From positions 113,257 through 177,256 of the forward strand of contig QPMI01000414.1 of the NCBI GenBank assembly GCA_004431415.1: DNA of 64,000 bases. The letters are read 5' to 3'. Both the position numbers and the translations under genes were made by a program. The notes under the pieces were generated by a model. It made no database searches and was not told the origin of the DNA. It saw only the letters and a program-made list of their open reading frames with translations. Within the stretch, counting starts at the first letter, position 1. The number at the start of each line of letters is the position of its first letter. Of the stretch, positions 29,761-56,671 are shown piece after piece. Source of the DNA: Cyanophora paradoxa CCMP329. Lineage: Eukaryota > Plantae > Glaucophyta.

Positions 29761-29855
29761 ACACATATTGAAAAACGAATTTAAATCCCTCGTTCATCTC
29801 GATCGCTTCGCGATCTCGATTCACTCTGGATTTAAATTCGTTTTTCAATATGTGT
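29761..29855. repeat. Terminal 95-nt fold-back hairpin (left)
   Basis: 28-bp perfect arms acacatattgaaaaacgaatttaaatcc / ggatttaaattcgtttttcaatatgtgt around a 39-nt loop containing gatcgc-ttc-gcgatc. Confidence 0.95.
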
Positions 29856-30178
29856 TAATTTAACTACTAAAATACATATTTATCGATTAATTTCTTTAAC
29901 TTTTTATGCAAACTTTGTATAAATTAATGCAAACTTTGTATTAAAAAATGATAAACGCGTTTAATTTAATGCATATTCACGATTGATTCGATCGATATTA
30001 TATCGATATATTATGTTCTTTGTCGATTACATATATAACTTCGATTGATTAACATTAAACTACTTAAAGAACGATATAATCGCGATTAATTCGCATAAAT
30101 TCGCATAAATTCGCATAAACTCGATATATCTCTCTGGTATTGAAGTAGACCACCGCCCATTCTGTATCGAAAAACGCA

Positions 30179-30645
30179 AAAAGTGTCACAGAGTTGCATC
30201 ATGTCCAATTAAACAATCGATGGAATTGCGGATTTACATTTTTGCACCGAAAAAGTGTCACAGAGTTGCATTATGTCCAATTAAACAATCGATCAGATTG
30301 CGGGATTTTCTATTGGAATATATCGGAACTGCATCACGTCCAATTAAACAATCGATGGAATTGCGGATTTACATTTTTGCACCGAAAAAGTGTCACAGAG
30401 TTGCATCATGTCCAATTAAACAATCGATGGAATTGCGGATTTACATTTTTGCACCGAAAAAGTGTCACAGAGTTGCATTATGTCCAATTAAACAATCGAT
30501 CAGATTGCGGGATTTTCTATTGGAATATATCGGAACTGCATCACGTCCAATTAAACAATCGATGGAATTGCGGATTTACATTTTTGCACCGAAAAAGTGT
30601 CACAGAGTTGCATGGTCTCCAATTGAACAATCGATTAGATTGCAT
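30179..30645. repeat. Subterminal tandem array of 72-bp and 63-bp units within the left TIR
   Basis: Core tgcatYaYgtccaattaaacaatcgat repeated in order X-Y-X-X-Y-X-Z. Confidence 0.9.
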
Positions 30646-30756
30646 ATGTTCTATAAAACAGAATAATTGAGATCAAGTGTGACAGGTAGTATTCAAATGA
30701 TATTCAGTAAGAGATAGTTTTGTTTTTGAGAAAGTCAGTAAGAGGGGTGGAATGTC

Positions 30757-31192
30757 TGTGACGCCTGTGACGGCTGTGACGCCTGTTTTCAGAAGTCTGT
30801 CATTTTTGAAAATTTTAAAAAGTTTGAAAGTAGGTGTCACAGGCGTCACAGGCGTCACACTCAATTAAATTAGGTGTCACAGCGAAATTGCAGACCATTT
30901 CCAGTAAGACAACTTCGCATTTTCGGAAAGGTGGATTAATGGATAGTGTTTTGTAGGTGTCAGAGGTGTCACAAGACGGATTTCAGTAAGACAAGAATAT
31001 ATTTTTGAATATCTCAGTAAGAGAAAGAGATTCCATTTTTAATTGGGTGTGACGCCTGTGACGGCTGTGACGGCTGTTTTAAGAAGTCTGTCATTTTTGA
31101 AAATTTTAAAAAGTTTGAAAGTAGGCGTCACAGGCGTCACAGGCGTCACAGTCAATTAAAGAGGCGTCACAGTCAATTAAATAGGTGTCACA
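30757..31192. repeat. Two iteron-like modules (inverted arrays of 9-mer TGTGACGCC around an AT-rich core) in the left TIR
   Basis: (tgtgacgcc)x3 ... ttttgaaaattttaaaaagtttgaaa ... (ggcgtcaca)x3 at 30757-30881 and 31048-31192. Confidence 0.85.
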
Positions 31193-31251
31193 CCCGATTA
31201 TCTGACCATTTTCAGTAAGACCATCTGAAATTCTGAATTTCTCAGTGTCAA

Positions 31252-31653
31252 CTAACTCGGAAATCGCAATACTCTATGTTTCTCCGATTTCTCCAACCCT
31301 GAAAACACACCTGTTATTCTCTCATCTATCTCATGAGATACTCTCGTGGTTTTTCTTTCTGCTTCTAATCCACAACTGAATATATCAATCGCCAACATAC
31401 CTTCATTTGAGTAACAATGAGCAGTGCAATGACTCTCATCCAGCAGAAGAACCATTGCAAAACCAGGAGGAGAAATACCACCATCGAAAATCTCGCAATG
31501 CTTGTGAACTACTCGAATACCTTGCTCTTGAACAATAGTTTGTAAGAACTGCATTAACCACCGGGTTGTTGTCTCCAAGTTTTCCACTCCTACTGCTAAT
31601 TGGGTTCTGAATTTGTAATCCAGCATCACATGGAAACCTCGATGAGTATTCAT
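31252..31653 (-). CDS. speD: S-adenosylmethionine decarboxylase-like proenzyme (prokaryotic class 1B, pyruvoyl-dependent)
   Basis: 133 aa; G.H.MLD, PPGFAMVLLLDESHCTAHCY.NEG...IDIFSCG with the E/SH autocleavage site and the D.FSCG motif. Confidence 0.85.
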   Translation of the reverse strand: MNTHRGFHVMLDYKFRTQLAVGVENLETTTRWLMQFLQTIVQEQGIRVVHKHCEIFDGGISPPGFAMVLLLDESHCTAHCYSNEGMLAIDIFSCGLEAERKTTRVSHEIDERITGVFSGLEKSEKHRVLRFPS

Positions 31654-31839: not shown

Positions 31840-32112
31840 CTAATCAAAGTACAGTACCACTGGTTTATCATCTATAACAATTCCTGATGTCGTCTTTTTT
31901 CTATATGCATGAGAGGATTTCTTGTTGCATTCTCTGCATCCACTTCCCCTTACATGATTAAATGGGTAGGTTTGCAGGATCTTGTTGCATTTAAGGCATC
32001 TAACAGAGACCTTCTCTTGTGCTTTCTTATACACTGTCTCACTATAATCGAATTTAGCATCACCATGAACCATCATTGCAGATTCTATGAATTTCTTTGT
32101 TTTATCATCCAT
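31840..32112 (-). CDS. Small zinc-ribbon protein (DUF723/CapR-like repeat seen with large-virus homing endonucleases)
   Basis: KFIESAMMVHGDAKFDYSETVY...KVSVRCLKC...NHVRGSGCREC. Confidence 0.6.
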   Translation of the reverse strand: MDDKTKKFIESAMMVHGDAKFDYSETVYKKAQEKVSVRCLKCNKILQTYPFNHVRGSGCRECNKKSSHAYRKKTTSGIVIDDKPVVLYFD

Positions 32113-32139
32113 CCCTCTCTCTATATATACCTGAGATTT

Positions 32140-32967
32140 CTATGGAGCAGTATCCTGCCCGAAAATGGGGAAGTATCGATTTGTGCCGTAATATTCTGCA
32201 TATGTATTCTGTTTTGCAATAGCATCGGTTCTCTCAGCATAGAGAATGCATTTGTAGATACCAAACCTGGTGGCTCTCACCAAGAACTGGTAATCTTCAA
32301 GACCGAAATTCACTCCATGATAAGCAATTCCGAAATTGTCATATGGGGTGATCACAACTGCAATATTTGGGGTTCCACCCTCTACTTGACAGACAGCATA
32401 AACATCTGGTGGAATATCCACGACCACCTTGTAGTGGTCACCAATCTCAACAAGAGAATCAACTACTGATGTCTGTTCATTCACAACAATTGGGAAGATC
32501 TTGATAATATATGGTGCATTCATACTGGGGACATAGGTGCGAATTCTGGTGTTGGGATCAATGGGATTGGGTTGGTCATTTACGAAAAGAGGCGCACCAA
32601 CAGCTCCACCAATCCGAAGACCATCACCAATATATGCTCCCCCCGTTTTGCAGTTAATAGCTCCCGACCGAGATTCAAAAGAATAAGTAGAAAGAGGATC
32701 ACCATAACTGTCTGGGTCTCCATAATGGGCAGAAAAGTTTGCATTTGTGACAAGGAGTTTCGTTGTCTTAACTATTCCATTATTTTTATCACATCTGAGT
32801 TCCTGCAATCTCAGTTTATGGGTGGAACCAAATGTATTCATGGTAGGTTGTACTTCTGTCGATTGGAGACCTTCTACATCATCAAAGGTAGCATGCTGCA
32901 AAACGTGATTTGCAGGTGCTGCTAATGAGAGTTGGGGTGTAATAATTCGCTCTACTGGGGCAGCCAT
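32140..32967 (-). CDS. Fibre/spike-like paralogue 4 (shared N-terminal domain, unique C-terminus)
   Basis: ELRCDKNNGIVKTTKLLVTN...GGAYIGDG shared with three neighbouring genes. Confidence 0.6.
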   Translation of the reverse strand: MAAPVERIITPQLSLAAPANHVLQHATFDDVEGLQSTEVQPTMNTFGSTHKLRLQELRCDKNNGIVKTTKLLVTNANFSAHYGDPDSYGDPLSTYSFESRSGAINCKTGGAYIGDGLRIGGAVGAPLFVNDQPNPIDPNTRIRTYVPSMNAPYIIKIFPIVVNEQTSVVDSLVEIGDHYKVVVDIPPDVYAVCQVEGGTPNIAVVITPYDNFGIAYHGVNFGLEDYQFLVRATRFGIYKCILYAERTDAIAKQNTYAEYYGTNRYFPIFGQDTAP

Positions 32968-32990
32968 TTTACATTAAAGTGATATATAAT

Positions 32991-33845
32991 TTATGGGGTT
33001 GGGTCATCAATCACATCTGGTTCCTGGTAAAACCCTGTTGTGAAGATATCTGCAACGTTTACCCCTCGAAGTGCCGAAACAGCTGCTATATCTGTCCTCA
33101 GTCCCATAATCATAGTATTGTAAACTCCAACCTCAGTTACAAACAAATCATAGGTAAATGTCAAATTGTTATAAACACAATATCCTCGACCGAAATGGTT
33201 TGATGCTTGAACAAAGAATAGGTAATTATGACCTGTTTGATTGTTGTTTGCTCTGCACATAGATAGCATTGCTGTGGGAAGCGGAATATTTCTTCTTACT
33301 CGATCAGTTCCTGTTATAATAACCAATTCCGAATTTTCAAGAGTGACAGAGGAAGCAACATAGAAATGTAGAAAAGGTTGCTGTGCAACTGGTGTATAGA
33401 AACGTATTCGTTGGGGATTCTCTACATTTTGTTCAAGAGTATCTGGGACATCATTATACGAAACTGATGAAGAGAGTTGTCCTGAAACATGACAACCACC
33501 ACCAATAAATGCTCCTCCTGATCTCACAGTAACAGCAGCAGAATTCTTGTCGAAATCGAGGGCTTTCAGATCAACACTGTAAGCATCAGGACCTCCATTA
33601 GTAGGTTGGAAGAAATTCGCATTTGAGACAAGGAGTCGAGTTGTTTTAACTACACCCGAATTCTTATCTGCTCTCAGTTCTTTAACTCGAATAATCGAAT
33701 TCTTATCAAATGAGTTACCATTGGAATTGGGTCTCTCTGTGGATTCTAAACCACGAACCTCATCATTAACTTCATGCTGGCGAAAGTGCATAGCAGGGGA
33801 TCCAAGGGAATATATTGGAAGTTGAACTCGATTATATTCACCCAT
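32991..33845 (-). CDS. Fibre/spike-like paralogue 3
   Basis: KELRADKNSGVVKTTRLLVSN...SGGAFIGGG; probable start MGEYNR at 33845. Confidence 0.6.
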   Translation of the reverse strand: MGEYNRVQLPIYSLGSPAMHFRQHEVNDEVRGLESTERPNSNGNSFDKNSIIRVKELRADKNSGVVKTTRLLVSNANFFQPTNGGPDAYSVDLKALDFDKNSAAVTVRSGGAFIGGGCHVSGQLSSSVSYNDVPDTLEQNVENPQRIRFYTPVAQQPFLHFYVASSVTLENSELVIITGTDRVRRNIPLPTAMLSMCRANNNQTGHNYLFFVQASNHFGRGYCVYNNLTFTYDLFVTEVGVYNTMIMGLRTDIAAVSALRGVNVADIFTTGFYQEPDVIDDPTP

Positions 33846-33883
33846 TGCTTCTTTTACTAAGAAGGAAAGAAAAATAATGTACA

Positions 33884-34147
33884 CTACTCTTCTGTGACAT
33901 TGTTATACTCGATGCCTTTCTTTACAGTTCCCCTTTGGAATGCCTGTAAAACAATCGCTTCCTTGGAGGTAGGTATTTGGATACCAGCTGAAATGCAAGA
34001 TTGAATTTCTTTCTGAACAATCTCATCAATTGCAATTCTTGCCCTGTTGTGAACCACATTATCAATCCAATCCTGAACAGAAGCAGCGCAATATTCCATT
34101 CCCAACTTCTCAATATCAGATAGAACTACTTGGTATATATTTGACAT
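33884..34147 (-). CDS. Small helical protein resembling hypothetical proteins beside C1q fibres in aquatic phages (possible fibre chaperone)
   Basis: MEYCAASVQDWIDNVVHNRARIAIDEIV...GIQIPTSKEAIV..AF..G.VK; recalled similarity, not searched. Confidence 0.5.
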   Translation of the reverse strand: MSNIYQVVLSDIEKLGMEYCAASVQDWIDNVVHNRARIAIDEIVQKEIQSCISAGIQIPTSKEAIVLQAFQRGTVKKGIEYNNVTEE

Positions 34148-34168
34148 CTCTACTTAATAGAGAGAAAA

Positions 34169-35187
34169 TTATGTGATACTTAGAAGTTCACCTGTGAAAA
34201 GTGTTCTACTTGAATAACTACCTGTGGAACCTGTGACAAGTGTTACATACTCACCAGCAGGAACATTGATAATTGCACTGAGAGTAAGAGGTTTGGTTGT
34301 GATAGTGGAATTAGCTTCTACTGAAATGTTAACTCCATTGGGTAAAAGATTATTTTTCAGAAAACTAAGACTTATTGCAGCACTTGTTGTTGAATTGGTA
34401 TATGCTGTAAATCTATAATCACCTGCAACAAGAGCTGTAAACCTTCCATTAGTAACATCGAATGACCCTGTATTATTTATCAAAACGGTTGTCCAATTGA
34501 TCAGAGCGGCTGCACTTGTAGCAACATGAGTATATCCAAGTTGAACAGAAAATCGTGGCTGAGAAACATATTTTAAATAGCTTGAATTCAGAGTCAAACG
34601 ATTGGCTTCCAGAGTTGCAACTACATCACTATTGCGTTTCAGAAGAAGATTTACATTCGCTCCTGTATCTATTTCAGGAGTGACCACCTTGGTTGATGCT
34701 GTTATTATTGATTCTGTGGAATTGGGAATACTAATTCCAGCATTTGCTGTTACCAATCCTGTAAATGTGCTTGTTCCTGTTATGCTTACTTGATTGGCTG
34801 TAAGGGTTCCATCAATCCTCGCCCATCTCCAATATAAGCGCCTCCACTTCTTACTACAAGAGCTGAGTTATTGATGGTGTTGTCAAAGGTAACAATCTTT
34901 GGTGTGGTGAACCCTCCCACATCATCATAAATCGCTGAATCTGATAAAATCTGACCTGATTGAACTTGGTTCTTGTTTGAGACTATTAGACCTGTGGTTC
35001 TCACCTTGCCTGCATTTCGATCACATCGAATTTCTTTGCATCTGATCACAGAATGTTGAGAGAATGAATCGGCTCCTGTGGTCTCTGTGCAAATGAAACC
35101 TGGGGTAGCATCTGTTACTGTATGGTTCAGTTGATGCAATTTCGGCGCTGCATAACAGAAAACAGGAACAGCTATTTGTGTAGACAT
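34169..35187 (-). CDS. Fibre-like paralogue 2 with C-terminal C1q domain (one frameshift near 34800)
   Basis: N-term KEIRCDRNAGKVRTTGLIVSN...SGGAYIGDG; C-term PRFSV...NNTGSFDVTNGRFTALVAGDYRF...FTGELL (C1q signature). Confidence 0.7.
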
Positions 35188-35209
35188 TCTTTATATTATA
35201 CAAACAATA

Positions 35210-36268
35210 TTATGTAGCACTTACCAGGTAAACCAACAAGATGTGATTGTTTGGAAAGTCAATACTACCTAACATACAGTAAATTTGAAGACTGTCTCCC
35301 ATGGTGAGGGTAATAAGAGCTTCGTAGCACATCTGATTCCTGCTTGATTGACTTGCATATGAAAGAATCAGATTTGTATTGTTTCCGTTTATTCTTAGTC
35401 CAATCTGGGAGGCAGTTGCAGTAATGTCTTCCGTAATTGTAAAATAGACCCTATAAACTCCTGAAACAGGGGCTGTAAATGTTGCTGGATACAGTTTGTC
35501 AAAATGACCCTCATTATTCACAAGATATGTTCCAACTGGAAAAGAAAGTGTTGGGGTGCCGGAACTAACACTTGTTCCAAAAATCTGAGCGTTTGCTTGT
35601 TGTCCTGAAATACACATTCTTGGGCAATAGCTGCGTTTAAGACCACCGTTTGTTGGAAATGTGATTGCTTTCAGATCTGTTATTGTCTTTTCGAGAGTGA
35701 AAATGATATCTCCGTTTCGTTTATAATTCACATTTGCATCTGTCCCATTATCCATCTCAGGTGCATTAACTCTTGTAGTAGCTATTCGAGTAACATAGTT
35801 AACATCTCCTGAGAGACCACCATTAAAGGTCATCAATCCTGTGAATACACTTGTCCCACTCACATTTAATTGGTTTGCTGTAACAGTTCCTGCTACATTT
35901 GCTCCATCTCCAATGTAGGCACCACCACTCTTCACCACAAGAGCAGAAGTATTGCTTGTGTTACCAAAAGTAATTATCTGTGCTGTGGTGAATCCACCCA
36001 CATTATCATACACTGCTGAATCGGGAACTACTTGTCCTGCTTGAACTTGATTTTTATTCGAGATAATAATACCTGTGGTTCTTATCTTGCCCCCATTTCG
36101 ATCACATCGAATTTCTTTGACTCTGAGTATGTTGTTCTCTGTGAAAGAGGTATTGCTTGTAGTTTCAGTGCATATATTCCCGGGTGTAGAGTCGACTACT
36201 TCATGAGAGGTGCTATGGAGTGATTTGGCTGCAAGTTCATAGTTTGGGATCTCTAAAAGGGAGGTCAT
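35210..36268 (-). CDS. Fibre-like paralogue 1 with C-terminal C1q domain
   Basis: N-term KEIRCDRNGGKIRTTGIIISN...SGGAYIGDG; C-term NNEGHFD....TFTAPVSGVYRVYF...LRING...LTMGDSLQIY. Confidence 0.72.
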   Translation of the reverse strand: MTSLLEIPNYELAAKSLHSTSHEVVDSTPGNICTETTSNTSFTENNILRVKEIRCDRNGGKIRTTGIIISNKNQVQAGQVVPDSAVYDNVGGFTTAQIITFGNTSNTSALVVKSGGAYIGDGANVAGTVTANQLNVSGTSVFTGLMTFNGGLSGDVNYVTRIATTRVNAPEMDNGTDANVNYKRNGDIIFTLEKTITDLKAITFPTNGGLKRSYCPRMCISGQQANAQIFGTSVSSGTPTLSFPVGTYLVNNEGHFDKLYPATFTAPVSGVYRVYFTITEDITATASQIGLRINGNNTNLILSYASQSSRNQMCYEALITLTMGDSLQIYCMLGSIDFPNNHILLVYLVSAT

Positions 36269-36293
36269 CTTTGTAATAGTGTGAGAATCTTTA

Positions 36294-39200
36294 TTATGCT
36301 GATGCTATCCAATGGATTGCAATTTGAAGCCACTGTGGTTGAATGGTTACCCATCCTGCTGCCCAAATAACAAGATTGATTGTGGTAGAGGTTGTTGAGT
36401 TGCTTGATATTCCTATTTTATAATCGATTTCCACATTTGTTGCAGGTAGTCCCTGCAATGTTACAACAACAGATGGAGCAGATGCAAAGGCAGGACTCCA
36501 ATTTACTGTAATGCTATGGTTTTGCCTTGCTGAACTGCCCCCAATTTGAGGATTCGCAATTGTCATTTCATGTCTCCCTTTTCTAATCAGGTTATCAAGC
36601 ATGTATTGAGGAGCCAGCTTAGTAACCTTTTAATTGTCCCGAGGATCCATGACCCACATTTCTCTTGCATATGCATTTCCACGAACAAGTAGGGTTTTAT
36701 CCTGATAGTAAGATATAGAGTTAGTAGAAAGGGTTGAATTGTGGAAATTCCAAATAACAGGAGGATCAGGCATAATATATGGGTCATAATCGAGAAAGTA
36801 ACCTGATCCAATGAGAAGGTTTGCATTTGCAGTGATATTATTTGCTGTAAAGGGATCGAGGGTGGGTTTATTGGTCAGGTCATTGTAGTTGCCCGAAAAT
36901 AAAGCGGGTTTGTTATAGATATCTGTATTCCAATCATGAGTATGTGCAAAATCTGTAATATCTGCTTTGACATGAGTGTGAGCAAAATCTGTAATCTCAC
37001 TCTTGACATGAGTGTGTGCAAAATCTGTAATCTCACTCTTGACATGAGTGTGTGCAAAATCTGTAATCTGTGACTTTGTGTGAGTGTGTGCGAAATCTGT
37101 GATTTCAGATTTAAAATGAGTGTGAGCGAAATTCGTAATATCTGCTCTTGTGTGGGTGTGTGCAAAATCTGTTATCTGGGATTTTGTGTGAGTGTGTGCG
37201 AAATCTGTGATCTCTGCTCTTGTGTGGGTATGTGCTCGATTATTCAGATCAAGGAAGCTACCTGAATATGCAACAGGGTGTAGATTAGATGGGGTGGGTT
37301 TATTAATGAGATCATTATAATCTCCTGTGAAAGATATGATTTTCAGTTCACCCCTTCCAACATAATCAGAAGGGAGGTCAATCTTAATGGGCATGATAGC
37401 TGGATCATCAGGGATCTCATACTCACCTCCTGGGTGAACCACAGGGAATGTTTGATTGCTTTCAGTGTGAACAAAGAAGTTGCATGCTGTTACTGTTCCA
37501 TCAATTACCCCACCTGTGAGAGGGAGGTAATCACCTGTCACACCAATATTGATACCTGCAATGATTGTATTTAGTTCGGTTTCATCTATGTAGTTTTGGG
37601 CTTGAAGGTAATCCTCTGTAACCACTCTTGATATAGTTTCATTGTGAATATTTTTTGCAGCCATTCTTTGATTAGCTTCCAGAACCCCACCATAATTCGT
37701 TTTTATCCATGCAAGTTCTGCCCTTCCATAATTATCATTTGCAGTTCCCACTATGGGAATGTAGGAGTATTTATCTCGAACGAAAACTATCATTGGTCTT
37801 GATCCATCCAGACTGCTCACATCTGCAACATGAACCTGTATAGCTGCATTGTAATTTTGGTAGGTTGCTGGGTCTGTTGGAACTCTAAAAGTATCTGTGG
37901 GTATGTCAACCTCCATGTAGCTTGACACAAAGATATTTGGTATGGTTGCTCCTGGTTCTGGTGGTGGATTATAAGAGCCTGGTAATGTTCTAATATGCAA
38001 TGGTCCTATCATAGCTGAATTTGCAAGTGTCCCTTCCACATGAACATAGTGGTGATTCAAAAAGATCCTTTCAGGGACATTGCAAGTCTGGTAAAGAGAA
38101 ACTCCCAGAGTAGCAAGAGGCTCTACTTTTGCGAATTCTGGTTGGTCATTGATCTCATCCCAGGTGTGTTCATGGTTGCTTGCTGCAAACTTATCTGGTA
38201 TCCCATCCAGATCACCCCAGTCATGCCTGTGATCCTCTGGTGGGAATTTCTCTGGTTTACCTAATATCTCATCCCAGTCATGGTTGTGATCCTCTGGTAG
38301 AAATCTTGCTGGTTTGTTATTGATCTGCTCCCAATCTGGGAAGAACTCCCAAATCTCTGGGCGAAATCCATCTGGTAATAATGCTTCATGGGGTTCATAT
38401 GGTTGCTCATAATCAACAACTGGTGGTTCGAGACCATCTGCTAAATATTCCTCATGGGGTTCATAATTCTGCTCATATTCATACTCTTGTGGATCTAAAC
38501 CATCTGGTAAATACTCTTCCTCATTGGGATCATATTGATCATATTCATACTCTTGTGGGTCGAAACCATCAGGTAGGTATTCCTCCTCGTCTGGAACGAA
38601 TTGGTATTCGTCAAGCTCCAAAATATCGATTTCGGGAGGTAAATATTGCTCATCAATTTGCTTTCTTGGTTCAATTATCGGTTTATTTCGAACCTGCTCC
38701 CAACTCACAATGTGTTGCCCAAAAGGAACTGTCTCATCTGCTGTGTACTCTCTGCCTGGTTGCTTTTTCGGTGTTAAATCTGGTGGATCCCATGGTAGTG
38801 GGAAGGGAACTGGGACAGGTCCATAATATTCAAAGATCTCTCTGATGGTCTTCTCACTAACAAGTTTCTCTCCATTTGCATAGACATTGCTTCCATGGAT
38901 ATTTCGCCATTGCCTGGTTCTGATACCAAGATCTTTGGTGTTTGTCACCAAAGGTAAAAGGTGCCTATCCATTTCGACAAGGTCTGGGTGTAAATGAATT
39001 GTTACTGGTTGAGTGGGGCTACTGTTGACAGTGATAGACGCCTTATTCTTCGATGTATCACCAGGTAGTTGGAAACCGAATTGCGCATTAGAAGCCGAAT
39101 TCGCCACAATATCTCGTGGATAAACATTGTTAGTGAACTCGATTTTGTTGGTTTCTCCATGGGGGGCTATCTGTAATATTTCGGGAATTTGTGCAATTGC

Positions 39201-39605
39201 ATTTGATCCTTCATTATAGATTCTTAAACCACTCTGATGCCCACCCTTCTCATTTTGAACATTGAATATTAACCTACCACTATCGAATCGAGTTGGAATA
39301 TCTGGGTGGGTTCCACTGGTTTTCAGTTTTCTTGGTCTGCTCCTGGTTGCTTTAATCTGGGCTACCTGATTCGATTTCACATTTCCCATGCTGAAAGCAA
39401 CACTCACATCCTCCTTTTCGGGATTCGTTTCTTTTATTGAAAGTGCATGCTCTCTTGGGTGAGTCTTTGAGGGTTCATCTGCACTGTGATCAATTGAGAT
39501 TGACCCCCTGGCTGTCAAGTTATCGAAATTTACATGTTTGTTATCTGCCCTCCCTCTTCCTGATGAGGGAATGGTTTGTAGGTTTGCTGGGTAATTGAAA
39601 CTCAT
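36294..39605 (-). CDS. Long phage-like tail-fibre protein with HxH repeats; C-terminal gp53-like/H-type lectin tip after a frameshift near 36620
   Basis: 991-aa ORF with acidic EEYLPDG.DP repeats, H.H.W..I..KP repeats, YLPLTGG, about 9 FAHTH.K..ITD 12-mers and SG.YNDL.NKP; adjacent 102-aa ORF has VNWSPAFASAPSVVVT...IHWIA. Confidence 0.75.
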
Positions 39606-39654
39606 CCCTGTTTACTCTACTTATAGAGATTTATTAAATTTGAGTTAAGTAAAG

Positions 39655-46633: not shown

Positions 46634-46776
46634 TTAATTGGGTGTGACGCCTGTGACGCCTGTGACACCTGTTTTCAGAGGTTTGTAGATTTTTGAAATT
46701 TTAAAAAGTTTGAAAGCAGGCGTCACAGGCGTCACAGGCGTCACACTCAATTAAAAAGGTGTCACAGCTGTCACAC
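46634..46776. repeat. Internal copy of the TIR iteron-like module (candidate replication origin)
   Basis: ttaattggg(tgtgacgcc)x3..tttttgaaattttaaaaagtttgaaa..(ggcgtcaca)x3 ctcaattaa, just downstream of the helicase gene. Confidence 0.85.
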
Positions 46777-46843: not shown

Positions 46844-49195
46844 TTACTCATCCCCACCTTCAACATCACTGTCATCCACCAACTTGCGACTATGCTTCTT
46901 TTTGATCCCAAAGTAGCCACGAGCAAGAACACCATTGACTCGCTTTCTCTCAGCCTTCACATTAAAGACTTCGCGAAGTCTCTTCAAGATAGTGCATTCT
47001 GTGATTTTCTCATCAGATTTGCCCATGTGATCTATCTTAAAGTGACTGATAATGGACTCACTTGTGGCGAAATCCCTTGACTCTTGGTGAGTTCATAACT
47101 CTCACGAATCCATTCTCCAATCTTGTCATTCTCATTGAAATATTCAACACCTTGATCAACAATGGACTGGGTGGTTTGGTGACGAATTCATTGAGAGAAT
47201 GGGTTCTCCACATTTCCAGGAGAATGGACATATGCGCCATTTTATAATCGTCATCATTCTTCATTAGGCGCATGAGAGTGGTGTCTGCTTTCTTCTCACC
47301 AGGCTGAGGATCGACCTTGAAGACATTTTCGAATCGGTAGTAGATAATTCGCCTTTGAATTGCTGCATCTGGTTTACTGATTCCCAAGTTGTCATTTGTG
47401 GACAAGAACAACTGGAACATGGGAATGAATGTAACAAGATCTTTGAAAAGAGCTCGAACCTTCATCTCATTCCCACCAGTAACCTGTTTGATTTTGTTCA
47501 GTTGAAGCATATCACCATCTTCTGCTTCATTACTGAAAACAATTCGTTTACCAAGAATGCAAGCGAGTTCTGGGGAAGCCTCTGACGAACTCTTCTTGGG
47601 TTTAGTCCAATATGTCATGTCCAGTGACCCATAATACTCACCAAATGTGTCTTTCACCAACTCTTGGAGCAGTGATTTCCCATTTGCTCCAATTCCAGTC
47701 CAGCAAGTGTATCTCTGATTTTCTGTCAAACCACTCAGGGCATAGGCAATTAATCCCATCATAAATTCGCGGTTTTCATCAGATTCGATAATATCTGCAT
47801 AGATGGATTTAATCTTCGCAACTTTCTCTTGGTCAATTTCTGTGGTGTAATCGTAGCCAACAGTCTTACTCACCATATCATCTGGGAGTCCCTGTCGAAA
47901 AGTCATGGAGTTCAGGTCAAACACACCATTTGTAAATCCAATGATGTTGGGAACAGTATCAAGTCTCTCGAAAAAGGTCTTGTCACTGAACAGAACTGAA
48001 AGATCAGACATAAGTGCAGTTCTGTATGTAGTCTGTTTGAGGCTCTTAGCAATTCCCAGCAGAATCTTTGACCTTTCCTCCAAGGAATTGCGGTTCTCTT
48101 CATCACGAAGTGCTCTCTGTGCGAGTTGAACAGAACGTTGAAGATAAACTGGACAGACCTTGCAGCTCAAACAGAGAAAGATTCGCTTCCCAGTTTCATC
48201 CATCTCCCAAATCCCACATACATCATTGAACTTGAACCAGGTCTTGTTGGAATACTTGTATTTGTCTTGCAGAACAAGATAGGCAACCTGTGCAACATCA
48301 TAATGGGCACCATCAGATCCAGCAGACCGATCAATCAGATTTTCGATCTTCACATCTGTCTCTTCCTTCACACGAACTGTGATGCTTCGCTTTTTGCAGT
48401 TTGCACTGTAACTCGAAACAATATATTTGTCCTTCTCCTTCCTTGAACAATATACCAATTGTTCGAGTCATGGCTTCCCTTGCAGCAGGGACAGATCAGA
48501 CCTTTGTTCTCAGCAGTGAAATTGTATCCCATCTTGGTCTCATTGATGATTGTGGGCAAGATGAAACCGAATTCTTCAGTTTAGAAAGAATATGTTTCTG
48601 CAAATTCTCCTCAGCGCACCTCTCAAATAAGAATGTGCACCTTTGGGAATTCGTAGTTGTCAACAATCCACTTTTGCAACTCAGCAGTAGGTTCATTTAA
48701 CTCACACTCAGATGCCCATGGCTCTCTGATCCATGTTTTGTTGGGACTGGGACAAATATTAATTACCCCAGCAGTCCCAGTGGATGCAATCGTTTTGCAG
48801 TCGATCTTGGGGTTTCCTTTGAATGCACCTGCTTTATCCAGATCTTACAGTGTCGAATTCAACAGGTCGGGCAAAGAATGCATGATATCCTTTTTGGTTT
48901 TAGCAAGAGGATTAACACCACCGAAATCATCAGGGAATTGCTCCTCGAATTTGGCGAAATCCTCCTCTTGGTCGAAGTCAATTACCAGGATATTACGAGC
49001 GAGAATCCCCAAGCAGTATATTACCGGATTTCAGGGCTTCATCGAATTTATCCCAAGTCCAGGTTCCGTCTTTATGAGCGAAAAGCGGTCTCTTGGTATC
49101 AGGATCAACAGGAATTACGAGATTCTCAGACAGGACATCGTCTTCACGAAGCCATCAACAAGGCGTTTCAGGGATTTCTTGGCGGCAGCGTTCAT
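46844..49195 (-). CDS. PrimPol - Zn finger - D5-like SF3 helicase (several frameshifts)
   Basis: Reconstructed N-term ILVIDFD and TKK(G)YHAFF (AEP motifs I/II), CPCCKGSH...C; IIGFTNGVFDL (D5_N), GIGANGKS (Walker A), IVFSNE (Walker B), LSTN, AIQRRI; C-term RGYFGIK. Confidence 0.88.
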
Positions 49196-49407
49196 TTCGA
49201 AAATCGGGGGCTTCTTATACTTAATGGAGAAATTAATTTCTCCGGTCGCTTGTCATTTTTTGGCGGCTAACCTTTAAATACCTTTGGGTTTTCCGATTGG
49301 CGCTCGATATATGGTAATGATCCATCGAAAAGTCGATTGATCATGGTAACAAAAGGATTCAGCGGATATCTGGGACTTTGGGGCGGTTCAGTATTTCCTG
49401 GGACGAC

Positions 49408-49614
49408 CTACTGGGCGTTTACTGGATTATTGGGATCCATCTCAGCAGCTTTCCTGCGATAATATCGTTCCAGTGCCTTTTTACGATATAATTCACGAAA
49501 TTCCTCATCTTGATAGCGTTTCTGGAAATACAAGCGGTCATACAACCTTTTCCTCTCATTGGGATCCATTTCGCTCATTGCAAGTTCGAATTCGACCACA
49601 GATTCAGTTTCCAT
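49408..49614 (-). CDS. Small basic helical hypothetical protein
   Basis: 68 aa, RKRLYDRLYFQKRY...RKKALERYYRRK, similar in character to small nucleic-acid-binding ORFs of large DNA viruses. Confidence 0.5.
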   Translation of the reverse strand: METESVVEFELAMSEMDPNERKRLYDRLYFQKRYQDEEFRELYRKKALERYYRRKAAEMDPNNPVNAQ

Positions 49615-50069
49615 TTGATATGTTCCTTATATTTGGACGAGAAAATAATTTGTCCGGTTCACCAATCAAACACACCTTACCCTTAAATCCCTTGTCATTT
49701 TTTGCAGATCGAGACCAGTTCCTGTCTACGCTTTTTTATTGCGTCTTCTGTTGCATATTCAGCGGATTTCCTTTCAAGGATAGCATAGATCTCAGAGAGA
49801 CTGAGCATTCGATATTAATTACCGAGATTTAATTTCGGATCTGTGAAAGATACAGACTGCGCCTCACTGTCTCTGTTTTAATATGCTCTCGAAATCCACC
49901 GAGTCTGTGGATAATCGCCTACCACCAGATCCATGACTTCAGTGTCAGAGAATTCGATTTCGACTTTGGTTCACAGCAACCACTGTGACAATTGCTCACA
50001 ATGTGGAGATTAAACATCTCAATGATTTTCGCAAGAAATCCATGATGCTCTCTCTCTTAAAGCGAGATA

Positions 50070-50786
50070 ATTAAAGCCAAACTCGTCGTTTATATACTGT
50101 TGGGGCAACACCTTTATCGACCTCTGATTTGGTAGCACCAGGTTCAATGGTCCCTTCTGGGTTTTGGTCTTCATCTCATCAACTGCCTGCTCATCAATTT
50201 GAGTCTCTTTCTTACCAATGAACTGCTTATCTGGAGACCAGTGATTCCCATTCTATACACCTCCTTTCGCAGCATCTCCTTAATTTCGCTCTCTCTTTCT
50301 TCTCAGAGACATACTGTTCAAGAGCACTCGATTTCGCTTCCAGATCTTTAAGTTTCGCAGTCATTTCGTCCCATTGGGCTTTGGGAATTCGTGGATATTC
50401 TGTGTAGGTGCGACCTTGTAGGTACCTCACCAGCCATGGATTGAATTACCTTGTCGATTCTTTGGAGACACCTTCACCTTTGCGGGCAAGTGAGAGATCT
50501 TGCAGACCAGTCCTTTTCATCAGCAGCACCAATATTCGACGAGCACCTTCACCAACTGCCTTCATCTTTGTGGTTCGGGCGAAATATTCAATGATCACTG
50601 TGGATGCTTGGGCGCTTTATCATCGGGATTCTTCGTAAGCAGCATTGAGGGATCTTCTGTTGCTGTGATGCTTTACTTCATTGACACCATTGAATTTCAT
50701 GGGATCTGTGTTAATAGAACCGGTTCCAGAGGATGCAGAATATGACATAGCACCAGCAGGAACACCAACTTTGCGTTTGAAGGCAT
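50070..50786 (-). pseudogene. Fragmented hypothetical viral ORF
   Basis: Coding-like pieces in shifting frames (RYLQGRTYTEYPRIPKAQWDEMTAKLKDLE); no family recognised. Confidence 0.35.
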
Positions 50787-50836: not shown

Positions 50837-51580
50837 TCAGTTTTTTGAATGAACACCACTCTTACCTCTTGGGGCTTCCTCTTTCTGTGGAGTGGTAGTT
50901 CTCTCTTTCTTTTTGGGCTTCCTGTGGAACCGAGGAAATGCGAAATCTTTGACCAGATCCGCTTTATCAACATAATAGTTCACCGAATAATTGCAGAAGA
51001 CCACACAATATATTGGTAGAGTGTACATACTCCTCAAACATCTTATAGAAATCGTCCTTGTTTCGCATGATATTTACTCCTCTTCAATGGCTTCGAGTTC
51101 TTTGCGATTTGCAGCACTCAGGAACACAGCATAATCCGAATTTACTCGAATTGTTGAAGAAACCTTCCTCAGCTTCTGTGTGATGCAGATAATCGAGATT
51201 TTCGAATGGCGACCTCTGGAATAAAGAGATCCACGATTTTGTCTCGGGTCAAATCAATGATTTCGTTGTCTATTAGATCATCTAAGACACACACAGGTGA
51301 TTGACAGGTTCCCTTTTTCGATTTTCTCCTGCCTTTCATCCAGTAATTTGGAAATGTAAGCAGCATCCCATTTCCGAGTTGCAATGTTGCAACTGCATCC
51401 CAGAAATGATTGAAGGACGTCCCACTCACAACAAGAACAGTATCAATCTTTTTCGCATCATGCAGCTGTTTCAACCAATATTTCACACATTCTGACTTGC
51501 CTGTTGCAGACTTTCCTATGAAAAGAGCACGAAATGGTGGGTTATCATCTCAGAGCAACAAATTCTTCTAAATCGTTCAT
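50837..51580 (-). CDS. A32/FtsK-HerA family genome packaging ATPase (frameshifted)
   Basis: Across frames: PPFRALFIGKSATGKS (Walker A), VCVLDD (Walker B), RGRHSKISIICITQ, TIRVNSDY. Confidence 0.88.
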
Positions 51581-51642
51581 GGCTTTGTAGATCTTTCTTA
51601 TTAAAGATAGATAAAAATAACGAAACGTTACTGATAATGGTT

Positions 51643-52991
51643 TTACAGATTGATCGCTCAGCCGTCCTTATCGACTATAATGAAACTGTGCATGAGAGCA
51701 CGAACATTAACAGTGATTGTCTGGTCAGAAGGCATGTATAGAGTGAGGAAAGAGGAGGAGGAGTTCGTGAGATCAACATAGCCAGACTGGGCAATGTTGC
51801 GAATCGCTTTCTCTCCATCAACACAGAATGGTAGACCACTGAGGACATATTTGTCTGCAACCTTGTCCATATTTGAGCACTTGAAGGCATCCGCAATTAA
51901 TTCGGCACCTTTGAGGAGAGGATGGCTCAGTAGCATAGAGACGTTGACCATTAATTTCAACAGTGAAAGTATGTCTTTTGAGTTAGCATGCGTTTTAGAC
52001 ACTGTGGGAACCATTGAAACCATCAATACCTGCGGCATCACGAACTGAAACAAGAAGACCATAGACAAGACCAGAGATCTGTGACAGGTTAATACGATTT
52101 GGTTGAGCATTTCCTTTTGCAGCAAAATTGACACTGTCAACAAAACCAATATCCAGAGCAGGAATAGCCATACCAGTGGTCTTCACCTTCTCAATGACAG
52201 TAGCAAACAGTTCATCAGAAACATTAATAGCATGCATGTAAAGACGAGGAGAAGTGACTTTAATTTCGGGGGTTGTTCACAATTCAAAGTGGTGATTGTT
52301 GACCAACATGGGCAAGAGTAGCATTAGCAGTAGCACCAAGTCCATCATCCTCTGTCTTATCAGCAGCTGTTCCACCAACAACGGAAGAGCACGACCACCA
52401 TAAGAAGTCTCAACATAACCCTTTCCAGCATCCTTGAACCAGACAGTACCACCATTTCTCCTGAGAGAGCACCAAGAGGAGGTAGTGGTTTAGCCATGGG
52501 ACTGGGATTTCAGAAAAATGACCCACCAAGTCGGTTGGTTCCATGGGCAGGGATACCATGAACCATTCCCATTGAACGCTTCTTCTTGGCGAGTTGATCC
52601 TCACTGTAATAGATAAGAGGGAAATGAGCAAGGAAATCAGAAGGCACATGGAAGTGTAAGATCCATAGGTGATTTCAAGTCGAGAGACAAGAGCACCAAC
52701 TGGGCGAACGTATCCATTGCGAACAAGGTCGGTATCACCAGCAAAAGTGACAGCTGGAAGGTCAAACGCAAGTTCGAGTTTTCCACAGAAATTGTAGCGA
52801 GGGAGCTTGAAAGAAATGCGATTTCCAGCATTATTCTCGAAAGTGTTGCTTGGTTCACAACAACAAGAACTGGCTTCGACTTGGATTCAAGACCAAGCAT
52901 GAGAGAGTTGTCCAGAAGAACGCCTTGGCTTCTTCCGGGTTGTTAGAGCTTCTTTCAGAGAAAGACGTTGGAGGGTCGAAGTAATATCCAT
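51643..52991 (-). CDS. Probable double jelly-roll major capsid protein (multiple frameshifts)
   Basis: About 450 codons of beta-rich pieces (LAFDLPAV, GALVSRLEITYG, ISGLVYGLLVSVRD, SGYVDLTN..LTL...TVNVRALMHSFIIVDKDG); lies between ATPase and penton genes. Confidence 0.7.
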
Positions 52992-53107
52992 GATTATCTC
53001 TTTATTATACTGCAACATAAAAAATTCACCAATGATCCTTGATTTTACGCAAAATCGCAATTACAGGATAAGATGGATGGGTTTCCGCCATTCTCCTCTT
53101 GAATATT

Positions 53108-54043
53108 CTACACAGGATCACCAGCAGGTTCATCACCATATCGAATTTCGAAGGTGAGGTGCACAGGTTGACCTCGAAATCAATTGGTTCATTAATGCAT
53201 TCACAATGTCAACCGAAAATGTGGAGAGCCCAGATTCTTGTTATAGTATTTATAAATCGGATGGGCTTCTGTGAATTATAAACGACATGCTCACCATAAT
53301 CTTTATCAGGAACCACGATTTTGTGGAAATATCCAGTGAGGAGACCATCACCACATTGCACAAGATCACCCAGCTCTTTACTCTCACAAATAGGACACTA
53401 TCCCTGGTCTTCTCGGGTTCAAATGAAGATATAATACCATGCACCATCGACCCAGTGAAGATACCATCAGTAAGAGTATTTAACCTGAGATTGGATTGGT
53501 GTGTTACCATATCTCCAGGATCAAGACCAAGCAGTCGAGCAGAACTCAAAAACTCTGAATCTGTGCCTGGGTTGGGTTAATTGCGGTTGAGAAAGCCAGG
53601 TAAAACGGTATGGTTGAATGGAATATAACTCGTTTCAGTGTATCATCCCATTTGCAACGAATAGCTACTGCTGGTTCTCTCAATGCAAGTTTGGAGTTAA
53701 TTACATTCACCAGTTGTTGGTGGTTTTGAATGGGTGTGCTGCGACTTATCACAATGTGTTTCCATGATTCATAATCAGCAGCAGGTCGATCAGTTGGAAT
53801 ACCAGTGCTTCCTGCACCAGAAAGATATTCAGACCAATAAAGGTAGATTGCATTATCAATTGTCACATCTCCTACTTTGGTTTCACCACTCACCATGGGA
53901 ATGCTGTTATAGAATTCTGCTGAGACCAGTCTCACTGCTCTTACAAATTCATATGTGCTGGGGAGGCGAGCAATAAAACTCGAAGTAGGTCCATCTCCCG
54001 AAATTGTATTGAAAGAGCTCACTTCAATGTAATCCACAGGCAT
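53108..54043 (-). CDS. Minor capsid (penton) protein 1, frameshifted
   Basis: YIEVSS...SSFIARLP..YEFVRAVRLVSAEFYNS N-terminus; C-terminal NEPIDF.GQPVHLTFEI across frames. Confidence 0.7.
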
Positions 54044-54071
54044 CTTCTTTTATCTATAAACATATATTAAA

Positions 54072-54998
54072 ATGATTCGGCTGGTCAATATAGATAGCAG
54101 AGACCGATCAGATGGACAAATAGAAAACTCCTACAAAGTTTCACTCACAACCCCAGTGACCAAACCAAGAGAATGTCGAGTTTTGTATGCAGAGATCCCC
54201 AACAGCATCTATAACTCCATTGGAACAGACCACCTTCTTGTCAGATTCTACTACCAAGGCATCTCTGAAACCAAGCAGTCTTCCTTCTCCCAAGTGGTTA
54301 CATAAATCAAGGTCATTTCGGGTCACCACTCCATATAATTATGGTCTGAATTTCACATTTACTGGGAGCAACAATCTCACATATGCATTCAAGGTCTACT
54401 ACAACCCTACCTCCTACAAATTGGAGTTTTACAGTAATGTTCAATTCGATATGGTTGCATCTACACAGAGATTGGGTAAACTTCTTGTGTGAGTTCAGTG
54501 GAGTGGGTGGCTTCCACTGAACAGATTTACGATTTCCAGAGTCTGCAAGGTCTTTATATGCCCCGAGAATTTCCTTTATTTTTCAGGAATACCAATCACC
54601 CCAAACCATCCCCAATGGGAATCACATTCACAGGATATGAATTCGAGGCATCTCGCTTAAACTACAAGTTAGAAGCATCCAAGATGACAGATATGAATGC
54701 AGAACAGTATTTATACATGCACATTAAAGAACTCTCCCCATTTGCTACAAACCACAATATTGTCCCAAGATCACAACCACAGAATCAAGGGGCGATTCTC
54801 AGATTGCAGTTAAGTAAAGATATTGGGCAGTATGTTTATCACAGTGGAGAGCACAGTGAATACATAAAAATAACCGATCGAAACCTTGTGATTAGAGAGT
54901 TAACAGTTGAGTTTCGCGATTATTATGGTGATCTTGTAGATATGAATGGAATTGACAACTCATTCCAGTTAGAGTTCTTGGCTATTGGTAATGATTAA
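54072..54998 (+). CDS. Minor capsid (penton) protein 2, frameshifted
   Basis: LVNIDSRDR...YKVSL...VLYAEIPNSIYN; YLYMHIKEL; IRELTVEFRDYYGDLVDMNGIDNSFQLEF, typical PLV/NCLDV penton termini. Confidence 0.82.
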
Positions 54999-55246
54999 AC
55001 CGATCCTGATAGAAGAACTCCCCATCTGTCTCGAAAATATTAAGAATGGGACTCTTTCGATCTTCTGTATACCATCGGCGAATTGTCTTATCCCATTTAG
55101 CACCATTCTTTTTCAAGAATCTACAAAGAGTTGATCTCCTTGTAATTCGCAATCCATCTCTTGAAAGATCTCATAATGATCTTGTATTCTTTTCACAATC
55201 AAGATGTAAGTCCATGGAAATTGTGATATTGCTGGTTAATCGGCAT
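54982..55246 (-). pseudogene. Small DUF5710-like ORF (frameshifted)
   Basis: Minus frame FLKKNGAKWDKTIRRWY matches the GA.WD....WY pattern. Confidence 0.45.
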
Positions 55247-55293
55247 GTTTCCTTTACAGCATGATGGGAAATCGTTTGTCATTTTTTGGCGAA

Positions 55294-56671
55294 ACGAGAG
55301 TATCTCATGAGATAGATGAGAGAATAACAGGTGTGTTTTCAGGGTTGGAGAAATCGGAGAAACATAGAGTATTGCGATTTCCGAGTTAGTTGACACTGAG
55401 AAATTCAGAATTTCAGATGGTCTTACTGAAAATGGTCAGATAATCGGGTGTGACACCTATTTAATTGACTGTGACGCCTCTTTAATTGACTGTGACGCCT
55501 GTGACGCCTGTGACGCCTACTTTCAAACTTTTTAAAATTTTCAAAAATGACAGACTTCTTAAAACAGCCGTCACAGCCGTCACAGGCGTCACACCCAATT
55601 AAAAATGGAATCTCTTTCTCTTACTGAGATATTCAAAAATATATTCTTGTCTTACTGAAATCCGTCTTGTGACACCTCTGACACCTACAAAACACTATCC
55701 ATTAATCCACCTTTCCGAAAATGCGAAGTTGTCTTACTGGAAATGGTCTGCAATTTCGCTGTGACACCTAATTTAATTGAGTGTGACGCCTGTGACGCCT
55801 GTGACACCTACTTTCAAACTTTTTAAAATTTTCAAAAATGACAGACTTCTGAAAACAGGCGTCACAGCCGTCACAGGCGTAACAGACATTCCACCCCTCT
55901 TACTGACTTTCTCAAAAACAAAACTATCTCTTACTGAATATCATTTGAATACTACCTGTCACACTTGATCTCAATTATTCTGTTTTATAGAACATATGCA
56001 ATCTCATCGATTGTTTAATTGGACATAATGCAACTCAGTGACAGTTTTTTCGATGCAAAAATGTTCATCAGCAATCTCATCGATTGTTTAATTGGACATG
56101 ATGCAGTTCCGATATATTCCAATAGAAAATCGCGCAATCTTCTCAATTGTTTAATTGGACATAATGCAACTCTGTGACACTTTTTCGGTGCAAAAATGTA
56201 AATCCGCAATCCCATCGATTGTTTAATTGGACATAATGCAACTCTGTGACAGTTTTTGCGTTTTCCGATACAAAATGGGCGGTGGTCTACTTCAATACCG
56301 ATGAGATATATCGAGTTTATGCGAATTTATGCGAATTTATGCGAATTAATCGCGATTATATCGTTCTTTAAGTAGTTTAATGTTAATCAATCGAAGTTAT
56401 ATATGTAATCGACAAAGAACATAATCTATCGATATAATATCGATTGAATCAATCGTGAATATGCATTAAATTAAACGCGTTTATCATTTTAATACAAAGT
56501 TTGCATTAATTTATACAAAGTTTGCATAAAAAGTTAAAGAAATTAATCGATAAATATGTATTTTTGTATTAAATTAACACATATTGAAAAACGAATTTAA
56601 ATCCAGAGTGAATCGAGATCGCGAAGCGATCGAGATGAACGAGGGATTTAAATTCGTTTTTCAATATGTGT
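55294..56671 (-). repeat. Right terminal inverted repeat (about 1378 bp) including terminal hairpin 56577-56671
   Basis: Reverse complement of the left TIR; four rather than seven subterminal tandem units. Confidence 0.93.

Follow-up and report, generated by a model that had tools for sequence, protein, structure and literature searches.

The 64,000-nucleotide stretch analysed here (the window), from Cyanophora paradoxa CCMP329 (contig QPMI01000414.1, positions 113,257 to 177,256), carries an endogenous Polinton-like virus (PLV). In many protists, several percent of the genome consists of PLVs. An initial annotation had placed an AT-rich PLV with long terminal inverted repeats (TIRs) at 29761–56671, and these boundaries turned out to be exact: GC content is 0.403 inside the element, against 0.69 in the left and 0.60 in the right flank, and it shifts precisely at both positions. 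By itself the gene inventory is ordinary. The new part is the replication anatomy, and the features that we consider most interesting, namely the loss of exonuclease motifs from the polymerase, origin-like arrays and hairpin ends, lay outside that annotation. The element, its ends, and its replication and integration genes are:

29761..56671, unstranded: whole endogenous PLV, 26,911 bp, bounded by the GC step and the TIRs
29761..31347, forward: left TIR, with the terminal hairpin, tandem repeats, two origin-like arrays and the 3' end of the S-adenosylmethionine decarboxylase (AdoMetDC) gene
29761..29855, forward: left terminal 95-nt imperfect palindrome with a 28-bp perfect AT-rich stem
55294..56671, reverse: right TIR, shorter than the left by one 207-nt repeat unit
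56577..56671, reverse: right terminal 95-nt imperfect palindrome, the same as the left when read inward (arm match 100%)
30757..30859, unstranded: origin-like array 1, left TIR
31048..31150, unstranded: origin-like array 2, left TIR
46643..46745, unstranded: origin-like array 3, about 100 nt beyond the stop codon (46844) of the primase-helicase gene
55491..55593, unstranded: origin-like array 4, right TIR
55782..55884, unstranded: origin-like array 5, right TIR
41388..42788, reverse: rve integrase, 466 aa, intact frame, D132-D194-E230
42959..46242, reverse: pPolB, with a putative terminal-protein region, vOTU (Cys, His), zinc finger, degenerate exonuclease with an Endo VII/HNH insert, and palm
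46844..49344, reverse, start approximate: primase-helicase with Prim-Pol (PF09250-type), zinc motif, D5_N, superfamily 3 (SF3) helicase and C-terminal domain

The Polinton-type polymerase and integrase of the initial annotation were both recovered. The integrase matched rve in Pfam (E-value of 0.002) and IS481 in NCBIfam (2e-13), with the D-D(35)E residues present. Against a profile built from 21 relatives, the palm open reading frame (ORF) of pPolB reached 420 bits, and its motifs A, B, C and KxY are intact; no match to Pfam PF03175 was obtained at E≤0.05. Its relatives include Polinton-type pPolBs from IMG/VR (29–35% identity) and an adintovirus PolB (32%), and the palm lies on a long branch (2.3 vs. 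a median of 0.51) in a tree that was built without labelled Polinton, mavirus or PLV references and thus does not place the element. The N-terminal ORF holds the Cys and His of a vOTU domain, to which terminal-protein release has been assigned (Krupovic 2024, PMC11071308).

The exonuclease of pPolB departs from that of its homologues. Exo I reads YVKMD in place of YADFE, so that its D is replaced by K, and the Exo II motif HN..YD, kept in 21/21 homologues, is absent here in all three frames. The span from FID to DAML is about 43 aa, compared to 139–152 aa in the 10 homologues in which both motifs were found, and this gap of ~100 residues takes out the KGxYPY region. As far as can be read from its sequence, pPolB lacks the Exo I and Exo II proofreading motifs. 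Loss of the exonuclease has been linked to gain of a helicase in mavirus and Tlr1-type PLVs (Krupovic 2024, PMC11071308), and phi29 mutants in the exonuclease site lose strand displacement (PMC6351526).

The second replication module that had been annotated, a PrimPol-SF3 helicase, is indeed present, with D5_N and SF3 domains and an upstream Prim-Pol-type domain that carries DxD and H motifs. The Prim-Pol frames align with pIT3/pORA1-type Reps (five Prim-Pol sequences, 0/1000 shuffles as good), and a read-supported one-base indel at 48890 falls at the junction preceding the His motif. Prim-Pol fragments found nothing significant in PDB or among phage sequences, and a search of viral contigs for close environmental relatives of the helicase was blank, a weak negative.

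Five copies of a 103-bp array occur in the element, each consisting of three 9-mer iterons of the TGTGAC type, an AT-rich core and three facing iterons (matched in 0/100 shuffles). Array 3, just behind the primase-helicase gene, is likely the ancestral origin of a captured cassette. The other four lie in non-coding parts of the TIRs, 1.0–1.3 kb from the ends, with the iteron triplets preserved on both sides. Facing iterons around an AT core directly after the helicase gene are also the origin layout of Staphylococcus aureus pathogenicity islands (SaPIs; PMC9371898). Phage A2 has an annotated rep_origin at the same place after its helicase, with different iterons, and phage P185, a tblastn match of the element's helicase, has facing GTGA(C/T)GG repeats directly after its D5 primase.

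Tandem 9-mers were also sought in IMG/VR viral contigs by a scan of the DNA only, which returned 25 loci, ten of them bidirectional. For nine of these ten, the 3' end of a VapE-like helicase gene is at most 35 nt away, and the tenth overlaps an AAA_25 gene. By contrast, no VapE-like helicase was found beside the non-bidirectional matches (0/15), some of which are truncated or are collagen-like coding repeats; with duplicates merged, the counts are 8/9 and 0/14. A stricter facing pattern gave 20 loci (17 metagenomic, three viral), of which 12 are at most 252 nt from the 3' end of a helicase gene. By profiles, six of those helicases are of the D5 type (D5_N/DUF5906) and six of the VapE type, as Pfam confirms for 7/7 scanned, and four of the 12 are homologous to the helicase of the element (E-values of 1e-8 to 1e-18). 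Among the strict-pattern loci, one phage family accounts for five and a second for four. Given this arrangement and the analogy to SaPIs, the five arrays are likely replication origins bound by the primase-helicase, and facing TGTGAC arrays are likely an origin signature shared across the VapE and D5 helicase families. Because it also picks out candidate origins next to D5/VapE helicases in phage contigs, the signature may be of general use as a marker.

Individual loci with facing TGTGAC at the 3' ends of VapE-like or D5-type helicases are L019, L022, L024, L025, L031, L034, L038, L041, L044, L047, L048, L052, L055, L057 and L060. Four further loci (L046, L050, L051 and L059) have triple-iteron facing arrays with a palindromic core and no helicase near, one of them beside an alpha-amylase gene; they are possibly dispersed non-autonomous repeats.

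The TIRs are 1.4–1.6 kb long and 95.6–97.6% identical. They differ by 23 substitutions, four small gaps and the additional 207-nt repeat unit on the left, and their inner 756 nt are 99% identical. Both termini fold far better as DNA than shuffled sequences: the left reaches −32.9 kcal/mol (z −11) and the right has a z of −13.8, with 0/200 shuffles as good in either case. Adjoining the terminal hairpin, the left TIR contains 63–72-nt tandem repeats at 30178–30643, and the two ends differ there by the 207-nt unit; the arrangement is reminiscent of the repeats in poxvirus inverted terminal repeats.

The first 29 residues of row 23 in Table S2 of Bellas 2023 (PMC10120064) equal the translation of the right end, 56577–56671. 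This mis-called gene from another locus continues past the terminus into a major capsid protein (MCP) of a different capsid type. Since the published row carries the same terminus, it fixes the element boundary, and the fusion suggests a nested insertion, one PLV within another. Outside the element, the left flank at 29720–29760 resembles the 3' end of an intron with 12 bases of exon behind it, and the right flank at 56672–56900 is a 174-nt tandem repeat whose second unit has nine extra bases. Over the final 12 nt of the left flank, 9/12 positions agree with the second unit of that host repeat, which is suggestive only; the pattern hints at a small target deletion (9 nt) instead of a duplication.

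Several genes of the element are frameshifted in this assembly. We compared positions 39600–57200 with contigs from four public runs, which cover all 30 bins in 4/4 runs; 12 of the 217 indels are listed, and the left junction and fibre cluster lie outside this region. At the listed gene breaks, the read contigs carry single bases that are missing from the window. Such bases lie, for instance, behind 44381 and 44901 (pPolB), 48890 (Prim-Pol), and 52479 and 52851 (MCP), and each of these has most or all of the depth in 4/4 runs. Because the reads hold these bases, we regard the listed frameshifts as assembly errors; a degraded provirus is disfavoured, the breaks being single bases missing relative to the reads. 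The element is likely complete, as had been claimed, if frameshift-ridden in this copy. Long element contigs reach a depth of 1,756–2,777 in runs X2 and X3, vs. 49–54 for the contig of the right host flank, which we read only as tens of related copies because depth does not equal copy number and GC-rich flanks are under-sequenced. The element family thus looks multicopy. The reads derive from many divergent copies, and among the contigs listed none spans the whole stretch. For 41400–51300, no RNA data set was listed, from which we conclude nothing.

The anatomy observed leads us to propose, with a probability of roughly 0.58, that replication is origin-driven and helicase-assisted. The SF3 helicase would recognise the arrays on the excised or incoming linear genome and melt the AT core as SaPI Rep does. 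Prim-Pol would then prime, and the exonuclease-dead pPolB, predicted to be a poor strand displacer, would elongate behind the helicase. The ends might be finished either by terminal-protein priming, as the vOTU dyad is intact, or by fold-back of the 95-nt palindrome. The A32 ATPase would package genomes into a double-jelly-roll capsid that matures without an Ulp1 protease, lectin/C1q fibres and patatin would serve entry, and the rve integrase would insert new copies. In evolutionary terms, a phage-type cassette of primase-helicase and origin may have been captured, its origin copied into the TIRs, and pPolB may be decaying into a helicase-dependent polymerase. Rather less than an even chance is what we give to the element being caught midway through a replicon takeover, in which a primase-helicase typical of phages or phage-inducible chromosomal islands (PICIs) came with its own iteron origin, now present twice per TIR, the exonuclease-less pPolB became its partner for elongation, and terminal-protein priming is giving way to hairpin ends.

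Several points weigh against origin-driven replication by this set of genes. The Prim-Pol frames were picked by eye and their alignment score is low (8.6 bits). The C-terminal piece of the helicase, compared with the C-termini of array-adjacent helicases, scores 0.5 bits, no better than shuffles (195/1000 as good), and Pfam gives no match there to a winged-helix origin-binding domain, so that such a domain is at most putative. The VapE helicases beside arrays have no detectable similarity to the element's helicase, and 8/20 strict-pattern loci are without a helicase by profiles. In the viral contigs, the Fisher test of arrays against helicases (p = 5e-6) overstates independence, since the matches are interrelated (four redundancy groups) and several negative loci are truncated. 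The exonuclease gap rests on one assembly copy, as no listed contig bridges it. In an Oxyrrhis PLV a helicase occurs together with a pPolB that has a complete exonuclease (PMC12721341), so the pairing of exonuclease loss with a helicase is not a law. Finally, neither junction has an exact 4–9 bp target-site duplication (TSD), unlike a clean rve insertion; TSDs were seen in just 23–58% of rve-rich cryptophyte PLV clusters (PMC12220804).

Classical Polinton replication would need terminal-protein priming at both ends and strand displacement by pPolB, with the helicase accessory as in mavirus and the arrays as relics or transcription signals. It draws on the conserved putative terminal-protein region, vOTU Cys/His and palm motifs, and on ends that begin with a dinucleotide repeat, which is compatible with slide-back priming. 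The arrays also fold into strong hairpins, as virophage terminators do. We nevertheless consider it unlikely: it sits poorly with the four non-coding TIR arrays 1.0–1.3 kb from the ends, whose iteron triplets are kept on both sides, and a helicase with a Prim-Pol domain, DxD and H motifs included, would be needless for pure protein priming. Less probable still is a hairpin-ended genome like that of poxviruses or parvoviruses, self- or origin-primed, in which the palindromes are opened telomeres, concatemers are possibly resolved by Endo VII, and terminal-protein priming is obsolete. The loop orientation is the same at both ends, with no flip/flop pair, the vOTU dyad is conserved, and no telomere resolvase gene was found. 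An Endo VII motif that stays intact through a frameshift would fit such a genome, yet these inserts also occur in homologous pPolBs (PF02945 on 4/14 matches). Its remaining support comes from the AT-rich imperfect 95-nt hairpins at both ends, from the missing TSD with the hint of a 9-nt loss in the right-flank repeat, and from the same model having been proposed for Halocafeteria elements (bioRxiv 10.64898/2026.07.28.741278). This reading is compatible with origin use.

The anatomy could also be an artefact, with the exonuclease-dead pPolB, helicase and TIRs not on one molecule and the assembly a mosaic of two or more related copies. The 23 substitutions and one repeat unit between the TIRs, the missing TSD, and reads from many divergent copies with no listed contig spanning the stretch would all fit, and Bellas 2023 (PMC10120064) warned of false consensus in such regions. 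Depth is however continuous over all 30 bins in 4/4 runs, the TIRs agree at 99% over their inner 756 nt, and the 9/12 match between the flanks, suggestive only, points the same way; a mosaic therefore seems very improbable to us. Exchange of pPolB for a primase-helicase has so far been proposed from gene lists alone. Under origin-driven replication, the element would supply a 103-bp candidate origin and its cognate candidate initiator, together with a polymerase whose intermediate state can be seen. The alga can be cultivated and seemingly has tens of copies, and PLV replication would become directly testable in it. If the element is indeed midway through a replicon takeover, no other PLV would have had a replication origin defined by sequence before, and the exchange of exonuclease for helicase would be the third independent one, with the decaying domain still visible.

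The genes for the capsid and for packaging, and the ORFs beside them, are:

49390..50750, reverse: three ORFs of no assigned family, without protease signal; the last ends in a GRPRK motif
50840..51549, reverse: A32-like packaging ATPase, frameshifted, Walker A GKSATGKS
51643..52991, reverse: MCP, frameshifted, 57% identity to P0001
53030..54043, reverse: penton candidate 1, ESM Atlas look-alike
54072..54998, forward: penton candidate 2, divergent from penton 1, ESM Atlas look-alikes

The MCP fragment retrieved one full-length relative, the C. paradoxa protein P0001, which is 57% identical and matched stepwise along 52991–51661 across about 11 frame changes. By this match alone, the host is very likely this glaucophyte. 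The model of this intact paralog, and not of the broken copy in the window, provides the fold evidence (pLDDT 58.7, nine-row alignment). Foldseek matched it to the PBCV-1 capsid with an E-value of 2.4e-18, and its Z-score was 24.4 to PBCV-1 (rmsd 4.2, 326 aligned), 13.5 to Sputnik and 12.9 to mavirus. By way of this paralog, the window's MCP is predicted to be a double jelly roll of non-virophage type, as the initial annotation had supposed for 51643–52991, and the capsid fold rules out virophage membership. The MCP family is very isolated, with six matches among 1.84 billion representatives, five of them true-looking; P0003 was dropped as a repeat-protein artefact. A search of metagenome contigs for close environmental relatives of P0001 was blank (a weak negative). 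The ATPase fragment matched Pox_A32 (E-value of 0.0024) and has Walker A/B and SRGRH motifs.

That there are two pentons, as first annotated, is probable. In the ESM Atlas, penton 1 reached 0.95 to a viral cluster with DUF5901 in 12% of members, and penton 2 reached 0.97 to NCLDV (nucleocytoplasmic large DNA virus) clusters and 0.93 to the Sputnik V18/19 cluster, with a low recognition value (1674). The profile evidence and a single-sequence fold lend less: the Polinton penton profile gave penton 1 no score and penton 2 a weak one (beaten by 3/500 shuffles), and the fold of a penton piece was uninformative (pLDDT 33). The two have no significant mutual similarity, and a search for penton 1 among longer proteins was blank, again a weak negative.

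The reported lack of a recognisable maturation protease held up. A profile from six Polinton-type proteases found no Ulp1/adenain protease among 1283 six-frame segments (best E-value of 2.6), nor did the Pfam scan of 55 translated pieces of the element show any protease family. In a leave-one-out control with a threshold of E<0.01, the profile recovered fragments of 5/6 held-out proteases, while the most divergent one escaped it, so a very divergent protease may exist in the element. The vOTU Cys and His in pPolB do indicate a cysteine-protease domain, not of the maturation type. Just upstream of the primase-helicase, the small ORF at 49390–49626 ends in GRPRK, which we take to be an AT-hook-like motif, and its product is a possible DNA-binding helper.

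We classify the element as a PLV because of its capsid, ATPase and size: it has a double-jelly-roll MCP, an A32 ATPase and, at 26.9 kb, a length within the 15–40 kb range, together with TIRs and an rve integrase. It is not a classical Polinton, as neither an Ulp1 protease nor a 5–6 bp TSD was found. Bellas 2023 (PMC10120064) lists 366 C. paradoxa MCP matches in two clusters (272 and 94) that its Table S4 leaves unnamed, and its Table S2 includes P0001, for which HHpred gives 98.5% to an iridovirus MCP, along with a paralog that is closer still. For 156 glaucophyte elements, Bulzu 2025 (PMC12220804, Table S6) gives 0 in all nine protease columns, and elsewhere 85 rve, 49 PF03175, 40 D5_N, 8 Prim-Pol, 89 lipases and 66 AdoMet_dc, as counts per gene and not co-occurrence. 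Relatives of the alpha-type PolB are known from C. paradoxa contigs (Starrett 2021, PMC8502044). These counts make the element's gene set the family norm, so the initial view of it as unusual does not stand; mavirus, too, combines pPolB, rve and an SF3 helicase, and for Halocafeteria virophages a pair of replication genes within a single element is on record (bioRxiv 10.64898/2026.07.28.741278). Judged by MCP family and gene content, the element belongs to the catalogued but unnamed C. paradoxa PLVs. An undescribed lineage, as had been suggested, it is thus only in being unnamed there and in its very isolated MCP.

With the catalogued C. paradoxa PLVs (PMC10120064, PMC12220804), the element shares the MCP family, the lack of a protease, rve, pPolB, D5_N, Prim-Pol, lipase, AdoMetDC, the discoidin-patatin fusion, and PTR and H-lectin fibres. 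The catalogues, in the parts consulted, are silent on exonuclease state, origins and ends, and 'hairpin' does not occur in the main text of Bulzu 2025. Compared with Polintons and alpha adintoviruses (Polintoviricetes), the terminal protein-vOTU-EXO-PALM layout of pPolB, rve, the A32 ATPase, the double-jelly-roll MCP, the probable penton and the TIRs agree, while the missing Ulp1 protease and 5–6 bp TSD, the degenerate exonuclease, the extra primase-helicase, the probable second penton and the palindromic ends do not. Endogenous mavirus-like element (EMALE) virophages have long TIRs and form AT-rich islands in a GC-rich host, as this element does. They and mavirus (PMC11071308) also share with it a pPolB with a lost exonuclease, a separate SF3 helicase and rve. 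Unlike them, the element has a capsid fold nearer to NCLDVs (Z 24.4), no maturation protease, a helicase with a Prim-Pol domain, and a long pPolB of the Polinton/adintovirus type with exonuclease remnants and an Endo VII insert.

Terminal palindromes in TIRs are known from endogenous virophages and PLV subtype 4 of Halocafeteria seosinensis, some of which combine pPolB with a D5 primase-helicase and were interpreted as transient states of replacement (bioRxiv 10.64898/2026.07.28.741278). Those palindromes are 52 nt long, lie beside TSDs and mostly accompany non-pPolB elements; the dual-replicase cases are virophages, and the section on them describes no iteron origins. The closest likeness to the arrays is with SaPI/PICI and phage primase-helicase origins (PMC9371898; phage A2 rep_origin), where an SF3 helicase gene is followed by facing iterons across an AT core. 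The element differs in being a eukaryotic virus with four additional arrays in its TIRs, and binding and a winged-helix domain are predicted here at most. For entomopoxvirus-associated PLVs, TIRs were hypothesised as the origin of the primase-helicase, and helicases were proposed to displace PolB via intermediates (bioRxiv 10.1101/2023.10.16.562556). The available text of that paper has no mention of iterons, and it pairs the primase-helicase with a tyrosine recombinase, whereas our element keeps rve and a decaying pPolB. In the open-licence PMC and bioRxiv literature, among the top-ranked matches where a search was broad, we found no paper that describes iteron origins in a PLV and none on the replication genes or the ends of PLVs from C. 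paradoxa, and the consulted parts of PMC13215967 and PMC12747079 hold nothing to the contrary.

The remaining genes of the element are:

31252..31653, reverse: SpeD-family AdoMetDC with an E-S-H self-cleavage motif
31840..32139, reverse: small zinc-finger protein, a relative of a phage endonuclease-associated domain (PHROG 681, E-value of 5e-11; DUF4379, 3.5e-4)
32140..36629, reverse: fibre-like cluster, four paralogs with a common ~125-aa N-terminal domain
32140-32973, 32991-33902, 34169-35190 (broken once) and 35210-36304, reverse: the fibre paralogs, the last two ending in C1q
33884-34153, reverse: small ORF in the fibre cluster
36294-36629, reverse: H-lectin-like gene
36630..39611, reverse: 993-codon fibre with phage tail repeats (PF12789, E-value of 1.4e-5; PHROG tail families)
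39649..41191, forward: patatin-like phospholipase, frameshift-broken, likely fused to an F5/8 (discoidin) domain

Clear or near-threshold Pfam matches in the element were AdoMet_dc, C1q (2), H_lectin, PTR, patatin (2), F5/8, rve, Endonuclease VII, D5_N with DUF5906, and Pox_A32. This bears out the combination annotated for this alga, a reduced, PLV-type capsid module with phage-like fibre and enzyme cargo. The coding sequence of the 993-codon fibre contains tandem repeats, an acidic one of 66 nt and an HTH-T phage tail repeat of 36 nt (38324–38590; 36899–37250). The discoidin-patatin fusion has been noted in glaucophyte PLVs (PMC12220804). AdoMetDC matched PF02675 (E-value of 4.5e-11) and, below the cut-off, TIGR03330 (5.5e-11), and its last ~30 codons are duplicated in the right TIR (55294–55389). 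PF02675 occurs in 66/156 glaucophyte PLVs and goes without mention in the main text of that study (PMC12220804); a search of the open-licence PMC and bioRxiv literature pairing this decarboxylase with PLVs gave 0 matches. It might, as a guess, supply polyamines for DNA packaging.

To the right of the element, a multi-exon host gene at 61800–62360 looks by eye like a cyanovirin-N-type lectin (CVNH), with no Pfam support on single exons. The host genes to the left encode a 6-phosphogluconate dehydrogenase, two F-box proteins and a TmcB-like protein (6843–9256, 9929–11047, 14705–16099 and 20616–21770).

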